Shown: positions 59,595 through 64,000 of the stretch, piece by piece | How positions within the stretch are numbered: the first letter of the stretch is position 1 | How the letters are laid out: each line of letters opens with the position of its first letter | From: a virus | Reading direction: 5' to 3' (one strand) | Length of the DNA: 64,000 bases | IMG/VR virus record: IMGVR_UViG_3300047157_000174 | Span: 32,095 to 96,094 of that record | Translations under genes and position numbers: made by a program | Notes under the pieces: model-generated | Databases searched by the model: none | Told to the model about the DNA's origin: nothing | Seen by the model: only the letters and a program-made list of their open reading frames with translations

Positions 59595-59798
59595 ATGAAG
59601 TTAAGAATAATGAATGAAAAAGGACATACAGAATTAGATGTTACGACATCTGAGATGATTGAACAGATAGCAGAACACCCAACTCATTGGGTTTATGTTG
59701 ATAATGACATGGTTAGCCGTGAATCTATTAACGACATAAATTGGAATGAAGTTGAAACTGTTAACTTAGTTCAAGCAATTGTTGGCGGAAACCAATAA
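59595..59798 (+). CDS. Ubiquitin-like (beta-grasp, ThiS/SAMP-like) protein with GG-NQ C-terminus
   Basis: 67 aa; MKLRIM...WVYVDN...VNLVQAIVGG-NQ; E1 and probable JAB genes in the same gene run. Confidence 0.7.
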   Translation: MKLRIMNEKGHTELDVTTSEMIEQIAEHPTHWVYVDNDMVSRESINDINWNEVETVNLVQAIVGGNQ

Positions 59799-59948
59799 TT
59801 CTGTAATGATATTTAATATCGGCTTACCATAGATATAATCTCTATCGGTAATTACTATATGGTGTTTAACATCGTTAAGTAATCCCAGTAACGGGAGATG
59901 TTACCAAACGGGTGCGAAGCCCGTAAAAAACTAAAGATGGGAATTAAA

Positions 59949-60218
59949 ATGAAATGTAGAAATTGTAATAAAAAACTAGGAACAAGAAACCATACAGCAA
60001 GAAAAAACTCAACAACAAATCTTTGTTTTTCTTGTATTAGAAATCCCCCACTAGAAGACAGGTGCGTTGGGATTACCGCAAAAGGACATAGATGTAAAGT
60101 AATTAAGTATAGAAATACTGAATATTGTAAAATACATCTAAATCAAAAAAATAAAATTCAAATAACTAAAGGAGAAATTAAAAATGAAAATAAAATATAT
60201 AATACCAACAGTAGGTGA
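59949..60218 (+). CDS. Double Zn-finger protein
   Basis: CRNC...CFSC and C.GIT.KG.RC...YCKIH. Confidence 0.65.
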   Translation: MKCRNCNKKLGTRNHTARKNSTTNLCFSCIRNPPLEDRCVGITAKGHRCKVIKYRNTEYCKIHLNQKNKIQITKGEIKNENKIYNTNSR

Positions 60219-61566
60219 TGGTGGAAATCAAATAACATCAAGCCTTCTATTAAGAATCGAAAACAAAAACAAGAACATATTCCGCACATTATATGAGCGA
60301 AATATAAACCGTCCCAAAAGTACATTACTTGCTAAAAAAATGGGTCTAGACTCATATAGACACTTGCGTAATGCGGATAAGATTTATGATTATAACACAA
60401 AAAATCTAAATTCTTTCGGTGAAAGAATTATTACTTGTAGAAGAACACACATGAATACCACAGTAGAAGGTGCTGACCCCGTTCTAGAATCTCTTTCTAA
60501 AAAGGTTGAGGAAGTACTTTTTCCTCACAAACTTTACGATACGAATAAAGATAATTTTATGAATACTATATCATTCAAATATTACAACGGACAGACTAAA
60601 ATATTCTACGGCAGAACGAATAAAAGATATTATATCAATGGCCTACCTAGAAACAAAGCAGATGTAGTCAAGGCGATTAGTAAGATAATTCTAAGAGCAG
60701 CATTAACAAGATGTTCAAAACAATTAACTACTTACACATTAAAGGTTACTACCTTCCCCCACAATGTTCTGTATGCTTTGGAAAATAGAACACCATATCA
60801 TTTCAATCATCAATTGAGACAGACAGAAGTTGTTATTAATACCAAATTAATTAGTGATGATGAATGTGTATTAGAAATATCTGACAGTGTTTGGGGCGTT
60901 TTATCTACTAAAGAATTGAGTACATTTATTGATTACTTTAAGTTCGGTAAGAAAAGAAGTAAGAAGTGGAATGTTGGCGTTACCAATGAGTTCCTTTGGG
61001 AGCAAACGATGGGTAGTAAACCAACCTCTACCGAATTAGAAAAGATGACACAATGGTTGTTACAACATAGAACTTCGGACATTGTAGAAGATAGGGCAAC
61101 TAAATTATTGTTCGACATTGCAGCAGAAACACCCGAAATTGATTTCGTACAATTTAGAAATCCTAAGAATAAAGCGTTGTTTGTTCATGGTAAATATTGT
61201 GATTGGCTTATTACTTATACAGGTGATGGGATGAAAAGAGGTAATCAAGATGTTTCTACACATCAGATTGTTGGTTTTTCCGAAGATAAAGGAAATTGGC
61301 ATGGTATGAAACTTTCCGGTTCTATCTGTATTGACAATGTTTCTAAAGGGGCTAGTATCGGAGACCAATTAACTGCAAGAGCATTAGCATTGATAAATGA
61401 AGATATAGCAGCACATCACCTATACACAATTAGGCCATTAATAACAGAAGAATTAAGAAACGGAAGTAAGGTTATGGCTAGGTTGGACAGAAGTAAATTA
61501 AACCATTGGTCTCAAAGAAAATGTGACGAGTACTTACACAAGAAAAGAATGAAGGAGAATAAATAA
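60184..61566 (+). CDS. Hypothetical protein with C-terminal GSICID...GDQL..RALAL motif (candidate E2-like/acceptor)
   Basis: 460 aa with a Cys motif; function inferred only from context. Confidence 0.4.
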   Translation: MKIKYIIPTVGDGGNQITSSLLLRIENKNKNIFRTLYERNINRPKSTLLAKKMGLDSYRHLRNADKIYDYNTKNLNSFGERIITCRRTHMNTTVEGADPVLESLSKKVEEVLFPHKLYDTNKDNFMNTISFKYYNGQTKIFYGRTNKRYYINGLPRNKADVVKAISKIILRAALTRCSKQLTTYTLKVTTFPHNVLYALENRTPYHFNHQLRQTEVVINTKLISDDECVLEISDSVWGVLSTKELSTFIDYFKFGKKRSKKWNVGVTNEFLWEQTMGSKPTSTELEKMTQWLLQHRTSDIVEDRATKLLFDIAAETPEIDFVQFRNPKNKALFVHGKYCDWLITYTGDGMKRGNQDVSTHQIVGFSEDKGNWHGMKLSGSICIDNVSKGASIGDQLTARALALINEDIAAHHLYTIRPLITEELRNGSKVMARLDRSKLNHWSQRKCDEYLHKKRMKENK

Positions 61567-61650
61567 AATGAAAATATGTAATAAATGTAAAAAAGAATTA
61601 GGAGACCTTCGGGTCAAAGATGGCGATTGTTGTAGGATAATGGTGATGAA

Positions 61651-62581: not shown

Positions 62582-62866
62582 ATGATAAGAAGAAAAATGA
62601 CAATGGAAACAACAACAGGAAGAACTACAATAGATATTAATTATTGTACTGCTTTTTCCATAAGAGAAATAACAAAGAAAGGAGTCTTGTCTAAGGCAAA
62701 GTATGAATTAGATATTCATATGCAAAGCGGTACTATTTTTACCGCTACTGTTACAGATAAAGAACTACTAATCTTTACAAACTTATGGGAAACAGAACGA
62801 GAATATCACTTGTCTCTTTCTGAAACAGAACCAAAAGAAATATATGAAAAAGAGGAATTAGAATGA
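62582..62866 (+). CDS. Hypothetical small beta-rich protein
   Basis: Operon ORF; pattern similar to 57072-57398. Confidence 0.6.
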   Translation: MIRRKMTMETTTGRTTIDINYCTAFSIREITKKGVLSKAKYELDIHMQSGTIFTATVTDKELLIFTNLWETEREYHLSLSETEPKEIYEKEELE

Positions 62867-63492
62867 AAACAAAGAAATTAAAACAAAGAAAATTATTGAT
62901 AATTGGAGCAGGTGGAATAGGTAGTTACCTAGCATCCTTCCTAGAAAGAATTAGCGAAGGAAGACAGGCATTGTATGATATTACAATCTACGATGATGAT
63001 AAGGTAGAAGAAAAGAACCTATCCTATCAAAACTTTAGTGTAGAAGATATTGGTAAAGCCAAAGTAAAGGTGCTTGGTAATAAAATTGGAATACAATCTG
63101 CTATCAACGATAAAAGAGAACACCAAGTTCTTACTGCTAAACAATTAACTGAAAAGAAGTATGATTTAGTTATCTGTTGTGTAGACAATTTAGCGGCTAG
63201 AAGACTCCTTTACAAAACAGGACACGGTGAAGACAGTGCTGTTAAGTGGTTAGACCTTAGAGCGCAAGGTAGGAACGGAGTATTGATTTCTTACAAAGTT
63301 AATCCAATACTAATACCGGATTTACTTGTCGGTGCAGAAGGTTCATTCAGTTGTCAAGGTGGAGATTGGGATGGTTCGGCTAAAGATATTAGTACTATGC
63401 ACATTGCCATAGCAGGTATTGCAACCCAATGGATTCAACGTTGGTTTAATGATAATAATGACGTAGCAGATAAAATGGTAGTGAATGTATGA
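62863..63492 (+). CDS. ThiF/MoeB/E1-like adenylyltransferase
   Basis: IIGAGGIGS, DDDKVEEKNL.YQ, CVDN..AR and a candidate catalytic Cys in SFSCQ. Confidence 0.9.
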   Translation: MKTKKLKQRKLLIIGAGGIGSYLASFLERISEGRQALYDITIYDDDKVEEKNLSYQNFSVEDIGKAKVKVLGNKIGIQSAINDKREHQVLTAKQLTEKKYDLVICCVDNLAARRLLYKTGHGEDSAVKWLDLRAQGRNGVLISYKVNPILIPDLLVGAEGSFSCQGGDWDGSAKDISTMHIAIAGIATQWIQRWFNDNNDVADKMVVNV

Positions 63493-63731
63493 GTGAAGAA
63501 GATACAGAAATAGATGATTTAATAGAAGAAGATGTAGGTAATATAATGAATGTTATTGCAACAGATGGTTTTTACTTACAAGCAGAAATAGTAAAGGTAT
63601 GTTGTCCTGTTTGTCTAGAAGAGTTCATGGGAACTAAAAGACACGCAGGTGGTTTCATAGCCGGACATAGAGCATTCCATGAGTTTGAGAACTCTCAAGA
63701 CTTTATGGTAGAACAAATGGGGGGAATATAA
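63489..63731 (+). CDS. Small C2H2-type Zn-finger protein
   Basis: CPVC...HRAFH. Confidence 0.65.
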   Translation: MSEEDTEIDDLIEEDVGNIMNVIATDGFYLQAEIVKVCCPVCLEEFMGTKRHAGGFIAGHRAFHEFENSQDFMVEQMGGI

Positions 63732-63733
63732 AA

Positions 63734-64000
63734 ATGAAAGAAGAAAATAAAGAAGAAATGAATAATGAAGAAAATAAAGAAGCAATGAAGGACTTTGATT
63801 GGAAAGAACACATTAGGAGTGTTTACAAAGATATGTCTAATAGTGAAGGTGGTGTTAATTTTGTTAGACCATGTGCAGATACAGAAATGTTTCTATCCGC
63901 TATTTGGCAAATGTCTGATGAAGTATTAGAGGGCATGGAAGTACAAGTAGTAATAGATGACAAAGATGATTTGTATATTAGTAGCGGTACACCCGCTTTC
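63734..64000 (+). CDS. Probable JAB/MPN metalloprotease, N-terminal part (truncated)
   Basis: FL..IW.MS.....G.EVQVVID fits the JAB N-terminal helix plus catalytic Glu strand; the HxH motif would lie beyond the window; adjacent to E1. Confidence 0.45.
   Translation, partial: MKEENKEEMNNEENKEAMKDFDWKEHIRSVYKDMSNSEGGVNFVRPCADTEMFLSAIWQMSDEVLEGMEVQVVIDDKDDLYISSGTPAF

Follow-up and report, generated by a model that had tools for sequence, protein, structure and literature searches.

Complete cascades of a ubiquitin-like protein (Ubl), an activating enzyme (E1), a conjugating enzyme (E2) and a protease are known from eukaryotes, from a few archaea and, since 2023-24, from bacterial anti-phage systems. 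Here we describe a gene set with counterparts of these parts, the E2 being a probable one, on the DNA of a virus. The stretch analysed (hereafter the window) is 64,000 nucleotides long and comprises bases 32095-96094, the final 64 kb, of the 96,094-bp viral IMG/VR record IMGVR_UViG_3300047157_000174. In the bacterial BilABCD systems, which occur as Types I and II, BilA is the Ubl, BilB the E2, BilC the JAB protease and BilD the E1 (10.1101/2023.09.26.559546, 10.1101/2023.09.04.556158). In Type II, up to nine variable residues come after the conserved glycine of the Ubl and block adenylation until BilC removes them (10.1101/2023.09.26.559546). ThiF/MoeB has been noted as a common ‘auxiliary’ gene among viruses of archaea (PMC8276007), and E1-like genes alone have been reported in an Asgard virus. 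We found no paper describing the gene set presented here, and three papers on magroviruses, the group that our virus resembles, make no mention of ubiquitin, ThiF or JAB.

From folds, motifs, conservation, synteny and homology to host genes we infer the chemistry of a cascade, and we consider it likely that the virus encodes a working, self-contained Ubl-E1-E2-JAB system. Its parts, with lengths in amino acids (aa), are the following.

59595..59798, plus strand: Ubl precursor, 67 aa, β-grasp, ending in IVGG and then a two-residue tail, NQ
60184..61566, plus strand: p460, 460 aa, an N-terminal region of unknown fold and a probable C-terminal ubiquitin-conjugating (UBC)-like domain
about 61066-61521, plus strand: predicted UBC-like (E2-like) domain of p460, residues ~295-446, with Cys382 in the sequence GSICID
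62863..63492, plus strand: minimal E1, 209 aa, a single adenylation domain (Pfam ThiF 1.9e-18, above cut-off)
63734..64000, plus strand: JAB/JAMM metalloprotease, N-terminal 89 aa, continuing over the genome junction to 190 aa (C1:733-1305, L002)

These genes belong to a run (p334, Ubl, p460, TFB, E1, p80GG, JAB, p154, p134) that is syntenic in about 46 IMG/VR contigs and is therefore not a chance arrangement; the syntenic relatives reach down to 52% E1 identity. From TFB through JAB, and then in p102 and p154 beyond the genome junction, neighbouring genes overlap or lie 1-3 nt apart, and the stretch from TFB to p154 looks like one operon.

Ubl precursor, E1 and JAB protease

The ATG at position 59595 is the start codon kept by the orthologues of the Ubl. 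An AlphaFold2 (AF2) model of the protein has a predicted local distance difference test score (pLDDT) of 82.9 and the order strand-strand-helix-strand-strand-(short helix)-strand, followed by a disordered tail at residues 64-67. The best 50 matches returned by Foldseek were all ubiquitin, NEDD8 or ISG15 (E ~3e-3, probability 0.95-1.0, TM-score 0.45-0.5), and VIA matched the model to Fubi, ISG15, MoaD, 8tyz_B, SUMO, ThiS, SAMP1 and Urm1 with Z-scores of 4.1-5.3. Such scores (E 3e-3, Z ~5) are modest, as expected for 67 residues, and the match list is uniform. No usable match to the Ubl came from Pfam, NCBIfam, PHROGs or PADLOC, and the same held for p460, p80GG and the viral JAB.

In public metagenomes the Ubl family comprises 1019 clusters at 90% identity. 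All 120 cluster representatives compared have GG and then a variable tail, and none (0/120) ends at GG. The tails are NQ, SL, Y, C, AL and others, seldom longer, and the GG pair itself is invariant in 36 aligned sequences.

A search of PDB sequences with the E1 profile returned Cap2 (2.5e-10) and MoeB (3e-10), then Uba4, UBA5 and MccB (~1e-10). The best PADLOC matches were Cap2-type E1-E2 models (2.6e-13), NCBIfam gave 6A-MBL_cap2_3 (4e-8), and the only matches from GenBank phages were to crAss-like ‘thiamine biosynthesis’ genes, at 31-38% identity. Among orthologues the motifs GxGGIGS, DDDxxExxN and DN..A.R are invariant. Cys164, within GSFSCQ, is invariant as well and lies in SCQ or GCQ in the copies from host genomes; it is located 56 residues past the aspartate of the DN motif, which we take to be the spacing of the crossover-loop cysteine in ThiF and MoeB. 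Two further IMG/VR viral contigs (L029 8001-8360, L030 6216-6566) carry a distant E1 of 29-34% identity, with no other genes of the module nearby.

The JAB open reading frame (ORF) is cut by the window end alone and carries on at base 1000 of the record. Its signature is complete, with EVQV and WIHTHPxGxAxxSxTDW providing the E...HxHx7SxxD pattern, and is invariant in 20 orthologues. When the family profile was compared with PDB sequences, it aligned over this motif with AMSH-LP (1.1e-4), AMSH, Sst2 and an archaeal Rpn11-like protein (1.8e-3). The viral protein matches the PADLOC JAB model at 0.01 only, and one host copy matches Prok-JAB at 7e-4.

All the ORFs listed in an earlier note on this sequence are present where it had placed them. 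Its description of the 67-residue protein as β-grasp-like is borne out by the predicted structure and by fold matches that are all Ubls; its ThiF/E1 with a free cysteine agrees with the Pfam match and with the invariance of Cys164; and its truncated JAB-like ORF turns out to be complete across the junction, with all JAMM metal ligands in place. None of the checks applied here contradicts the interpretation given in that note.

The same Ubl and E1 could in principle serve sulfur transfer, the Ubl being a carrier like ThiS, MoaD, Urm1 or SAMP2 whose E1-made thiocarboxylate is used for tRNA thiolation or for cofactors. The whole viral genome, however, contains no match to a PP-loop thiolase or a rhodanese, extending to its full length what the earlier note had remarked of the immediate neighbourhood, where it saw no sulfur pathway genes. 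The E1 lacks a rhodanese domain, although it is as close to ThiF and MoeB as to Cap2. A weak Pfam ThiS match in 4 of 15 Ubl orthologues and the name ThiS given to some copies by the Joint Genome Institute (JGI) point towards a carrier, and such a role would aid an AT-rich virus (the genome has 32% GC) in decoding A-ending codons; yet the poly-Ubl precursors described below, the JAB and the E2-like partner suit protein conjugation rather than sulfur transfer. We regard the carrier role as highly improbable and retain protein conjugation as the preferred function.

The C-terminal domain of p460 as E2 candidate

The p460 family has 182 representatives at 50% identity. An AF2 model of p460 based on an alignment of 76 homologues reached a pLDDT of 87.2 and a predicted TM-score (pTM) of 0.78. 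In this model residues 297-459 form a helix, four strands, a long loop with Cys382 and further helices, which is the order of a UBC domain. A VIA search of 48,161 PDB representatives placed UBC, RWD or UEV folds in about 35 of 50 rows (Z 3.6-5.4, where Z < 8 can be a common arrangement and single domains in models of > 400 residues score low), with matches to residues 295-446 that included FANCL, UBE2J2, Ubc9, UBE2S, Ubc13, UBE2K, RWD, UEV and the E2 of African swine fever virus. When VIA was applied to the top 1000 structures from Foldseek, E2 or RWD domains accounted for 44 of 50 rows; the Foldseek search with the whole model gave no significant match. Alignments to whole E2 chains span 107-123 residues with r.m.s.d. 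values of ~4 Å.

Residues 298..435 of p460 align with 5..155 of UBE2K (C92), and 298..436 with 4..151 of Ubc13 (C87); by the linear offsets of these aligned ranges, Cys382 falls 1-3 residues from the E2 active-site cysteine. It is invariant in the 76 homologues, down to 19% identity. An alignment of the E2-like domain across virus and host retains four invariant columns, namely a glycine, Cys382 and a GD pair. Pfam gave no match in 76 viral and 10 host members of this domain family, and a search of the ESM Atlas with p460 and p80GG returned only unnamed viral clusters. The best PDB profile match of the domain was an aspartate decarboxylase (E 0.057), which was dismissed as chance. Stand-alone host proteins of 250-280 aa at L113, L116, L117 and L118 (genomes G027, G099, G097 and G029) share the Cys-loop domain (sICIh...lPvGDQiAalALAL.ND) and fall into no Pfam family.

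The model indicates that the C-terminal domain of p460 probably has a UBC-like fold. The earlier note had proposed p460 as an E2 and called the assignment weak. With the predicted fold, the invariant cysteine and the host operon neighbourhood, we now rate p460 a probable E2; what has not changed is that no sequence profile matches it to an E2.

That last point also suits an arrangement akin to SAMPylation, in which the Ubl, the E1 and the JAB would act alone and p460 would be an unrelated conserved early protein that happens to lie in the run. The fold Z-values of p460 fall in the range that VIA describes as ‘common arrangement’, and many loci of the host order contain a Ubl plus an E1-JAB fusion with no p460-type C-terminal domain (E2C) nearby (L108, L111, L119-L123, L132). 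In six host loci, however, E2C adjoins Ubl-E1-JAB, and each of the 45 host-order genomes with E2C also has a Ubl or a JAB (45/45); the cysteine at the presumed E2 position, moreover, shows no exception among the viral homologues. An E2-independent system is unlikely in our view, and we continue with p460 as the probable E2.

Host homologues, transcription factors and neighbouring genes

The opening and closing 999 bases of the viral record are identical, forming a direct terminal repeat; the viral genome is thus complete, a circularly permuted unit of 95,095 bp. It codes for RFC, PCNA, an ATP-dependent ligase and a family-B DNA polymerase (PolB) in two pieces.

Genome C1:10794-12494 and C1:13197-14003 (L031): split PolB, the pieces separated by two small ORFs of 114 and 121 aa

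A split PolB has been described as unique to group B magroviruses (Philosof 2017, PMC5434244). The ~95-kb genome, the full replication module and the split polymerase match the published description of that group, and set against it the virus is magrovirus-like. The GenBank phage collection holds no close or annotated relative, and the PolB matches only distant ones. In the surface ocean, magroviruses are one of the most abundant groups of viruses. The most likely host belongs to the Poseidoniales (marine group II archaea).

When species genomes were scanned with the profile of p80GG, matches came from two Candidatus Poseidoniales single-cell genomes and the metagenome-assembled genome ‘Euryarchaeota archaeon UBA23’. 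We searched the viral profiles in 151 genomes of the order of UBA23 (the host order), which are mutually related, so that the counts are not independent tests. The Ubl was found in 81 of the 151, the JAB in 88 and both in 77; E2C is present in 45. Judged by these profile matches, all four parts have homologues in the host order. Operons in the order E2C-protein, Ubl, E1, JAB occur at L114, L128 and L130, and in other loci the parts are fused or repeated.

L111 5196-6404 and L108 5143-6432: host E1-JAB fusions, 400-430 aa
L112 4159-5292 and L129 4289-5563: host Ubl-Ubl-E1 fusions, 377-424 aa, with the JAB separate
L096 1483-1920 (minus strand), L098, L097, L099 and L100: tandem di-Ubl genes, in genomes G006, G015, G143, G019 and G031

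Compared with the two halves of a host E1-JAB fusion, the viral E1 has 28% identity (E 2e-20) to the E1 part and the viral JAB 31% identity (E 5e-14) to the JAB part. Two host loci that lie by a methylmalonyl-CoA mutase gene combine a Ubl of 71-72 aa, ending in LVGG plus a tail, with an E1-JAB fusion of 402-429 aa. Two or three Ubl matches were obtained in about 47 genomes, mostly in tandem within one reading frame. In these poly-Ubl genes each repeat ends in LVGG and the last bears a short variable tail, which is the layout of polyubiquitin. Three-domain Ubl genes are also among the search matches, and in larger genomes tandem Ubl genes are unlinked to E1 or JAB.

In the E1 tree, a branch of length 2.6 with 100/99 support parts 25 viral sequences from 24 sequences of host genomes, the latter consisting of 23 host copies and the virus-like copy of locus L109. 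According to this unrooted tree, the split between virus and host E1s is old. L109 (G104:C1:168000-186000; genes at 6523-8983, minus strand) lies in a 451-kb host contig and encodes a JAB 49% identical to the viral one together with a Ubl and an E1, the last of which groups with the host clade. A typical host cluster of Ubl and E1-JAB is located 20 kb away on the same contig. This locus could be a provirus or else a second system of the host.

A host with its own Ubl-E1-JAB(-E2C) system might be countered with the viral set, the viral JAB stripping host Ubl from its conjugates and the other viral parts (Ubl, E1 and E2) swamping or redirecting the host machinery. Such interference would accord with the antiviral defence served by the bacterial Bil, Bub and CBASS-Cap2 relatives, and with the Cap2-type models that head the PADLOC matches of the viral E1. 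Stripping, however, would need the JAB alone and not the whole set; at least two host clusters stand beside a methylmalonyl-CoA mutase gene and not in an obvious defence island; and the long, fully supported branch between the E1s speaks against close mimicry of the current host enzyme. We hold counter-defence to be quite unlikely as the role of the set, and it overlaps a viral conjugation cascade, our favoured explanation, rather than excluding it.

The viral cluster also contains a gene for a transcription factor.

61651..62580, plus strand: TFB/TFIIB-like transcription factor, 309 aa (Pfam Zn_Ribbon_TF 1e-7, TFIIB repeat 0.003)

This gene is found between p460 and the E1 in all viral loci. 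A TFIIB-type gene adjoins the cluster in 6 of 25 host loci as well (L108, L122, L125, L111, L123 and L126). The one at L108 matches Pfam Zn_Ribbon_TF at 2.6e-10, above cut-off; those at L108, L122 and L125 match the ribbon of the viral TFB at 5e-6 to 7e-5; those at L111 and L123 are mutually homologous, and that at L126 has a cyclin part. In Haloferax, TBP2 is a target of sampylation (PMC4895103). Since TFIIB-type genes occur both within the viral cluster and next to host clusters, the transcription machinery is, from this neighbourhood, the leading candidate for a target or partner of the system; the earlier note had raised such a link, which the genes flanking the host clusters now strengthen.

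If the preferred reading is correct, the cascade would run early, from the replication arm of the genome. The Ubl would be made as a 67-residue precursor whose tail, of one or two residues in the family, blocks the C-terminal Gly-Gly, and the JAB would cut it after GG. The minimal and probably homodimeric E1 would then adenylate the freed glycine and probably load the Ubl onto its Cys164, from which it would move to Cys382 in the UBC-like domain of p460. As no E3 is present, the large N-terminal part of p460 probably selects the targets. The Ubl would end on lysines of host or viral proteins, and the JAB could also reverse the modification.

Several observations weigh against this reading. The case for an E2 consists of a predicted fold with modest Z-scores (3.6-5.4), the gene context and a single cysteine; no Pfam, NCBIfam or PADLOC model ties p460 to any E2, the HPN motif is absent from it, and a profile of the E2-like domain built from virus and host found no E2 among PDB sequences. 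In the E1, the arginine of the classical NLxRQ motif is a tyrosine in the virus (NLSYQN) and a histidine in the host (NLQHQN), and the CxxC zinc motifs and the C-terminal Ubl-binding subdomain, both present in MoeB, are missing. The viral JAB obtains no Pfam JAB or Prok-JAB match. The host TFB-like genes match the viral TFB over the zinc ribbon only, one pair of them not significantly, and synteny within one viral lineage does not by itself prove functional linkage.

A second protein of the run ends in GG and a tail.

63489..63731, plus strand: p80GG, 80 aa, acidic, zinc-finger-type, ending in MGG plus one residue

The start of p80GG overlaps the stop codon of the E1, and in every viral locus the gene is placed between those for the E1 and the JAB. 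Its zinc-finger pattern (CPxC..H..HxxxH) is CPxC, 17 residues and then HxxxH, and in 118 of 120 representatives the C-terminus is (M/L)GG with a single variable residue after it (Q, I, A, V, M or T). The protein falls into no Pfam family. Homologues are present in 55 of the 151 host-order genomes; copies at L079 (2125-2367) and L085-L090, up to 71% identical to the viral protein, are located near Fpg, aquaporin and methylmalonyl-CoA mutase genes.

Its terminal sequence, which has the pattern of a tag precursor, makes p80GG a candidate second substrate, or partner, of the JAB and the E1. One could go further and envisage a two-tag system, in which the JAB trims p80GG at the invariant GG, the E1 activates it and the whole set works on basal transcription so as to turn the cell over to viral transcription; the targets would be the TFB encoded inside the cluster, or the host TFB and RNA polymerase. 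If true, p80GG would be a new kind of protein modifier that is not a β-grasp protein. Host copies of p80GG, however, stand alone amid housekeeping genes, which argues against a role as tag. The tag reading is further weakened by the genomes of the GG-tailed host copies, in which no Ubl or JAB was detected, and by the p80GG profile, which finds nothing within host Ubl-E1-JAB loci. A two-tag system is accordingly a doubtful extension of the single-tag cascade that we favour.

Three other genes lie next to or between the parts of the system.

58301-59305, plus strand: p334, 334 aa, upstream of the Ubl in all related viruses, no family
59898..60218, plus strand: Cys-rich zinc-finger protein, 106 aa, weak DUF5763 and zf-primase matches
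62582..62866, plus strand: 94-aa ORF, no family, elsewhere or absent in related loci

An invariant motif, MASIVWRWNHP.N...RG.PN, characterizes p334, which has no homologue in host loci L108-L112. Its ‘HPN...C’ string was considered as a second E2 or zinc site and rejected, as the string is not conserved. The 106-aa protein is confined to the closest relatives (L004-L010 and L033-L038), and its membership of the system is therefore doubtful. The 94-aa ORF changes position from relative to relative and therefore probably does not belong to the system.

Comparison with known systems

What is new here is a probable cascade carried by a virus of an abundant ocean group, with a related set in the host chromosome. 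Also new are the host operons that include an E2-like domain, the host genes for tandem Ubls, the TFIIB-type genes next to host clusters and the zinc-finger-type protein with its GG tail. The usual picture would be reversed, in that the virus and not the cell may do the tagging. The repeated association with TFIIB-type genes suggests a route to viral control of archaeal transcription. The tandem poly-Ubl genes and E1-JAB fusions of the host resemble polyubiquitin processing and bear on the origin of ubiquitin signalling. The system is testable, since its parts are small and can be studied separately (the tag has 67 aa, the E1 209 aa and the protease 190 aa).

With Bil, the viral set has in common the same four parts, p460 being counted as the probable E2, the lack of an E3, and a Ubl whose conserved glycine is followed by non-conserved residues for removal by a JAB; the Ubl model also matches the bacterial BilA-type Ubl 8tyz_B (Z 5.0). 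In contrast, BilD is a large E1 of the IAD-AAD-CYS type, whereas the viral E1 has 209 aa, one adenylation domain and a candidate crossover-loop cysteine, and the viral E2-like domain forms the C-terminal end of the 460 residues of p460. With PADLOC, BilD is matched only in part (9e-8) and BilA, BilB and BilC not at all, and the set resides on an archaeal virus and not in a bacterial defence island.

The Bub systems, which are bacterial class 6E operons (PMC11601596), have a minimal, homodimer-type E1 and a Ubl freed by JAB cleavage, as is proposed for the viral set. They fuse peptidase and E1 in one protein, as the host copies do here, and BubCD is among the E1 profile matches (3.7e-5). The order is JAB-E1 in BubCD, however, and E1-JAB in the host fusions. 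Furthermore, Bub uses oxyesters and an E1 without a crossover-loop cysteine, whereas here the E1 and the E2-like domain both keep an invariant cysteine, and no Ubl-E2 fusion was seen among the loci described here.

The best sequence matches of the viral E1 are found in CBASS Type II Cap2/Cap3 and in 6A-MBL Cap2_3, which also include a JAB partner. The protein whose C-terminus these enzymes activate is not of the β-grasp type. Cap2 is an E2-E1 fusion that works without a Ubl and has the CD-NTase as substrate, unlike the viral set with its separate Ubl and an E2-like domain on another protein.

The SAMP/UbaA/JAMM1 system (PMC2948915) shares the archaeal setting, a β-grasp tag with GG, a ThiF-type E1 and a JAMM protease, and the basal transcription factor TBP2 provides a precedent for the proposed target (PMC4895103). 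SAMPylation, by contrast, needs no E2, SAMPs are made without tails, and UbaA also serves sulfur transfer; against the NCBIfam UbaA model the viral E1 scores 33.9 bits, with a cut-off of 450. While it fails a defining feature of each of these systems, the viral set shares parts and logic with Bil, Bub, CBASS Cap2/Cap3 and SAMPylation.

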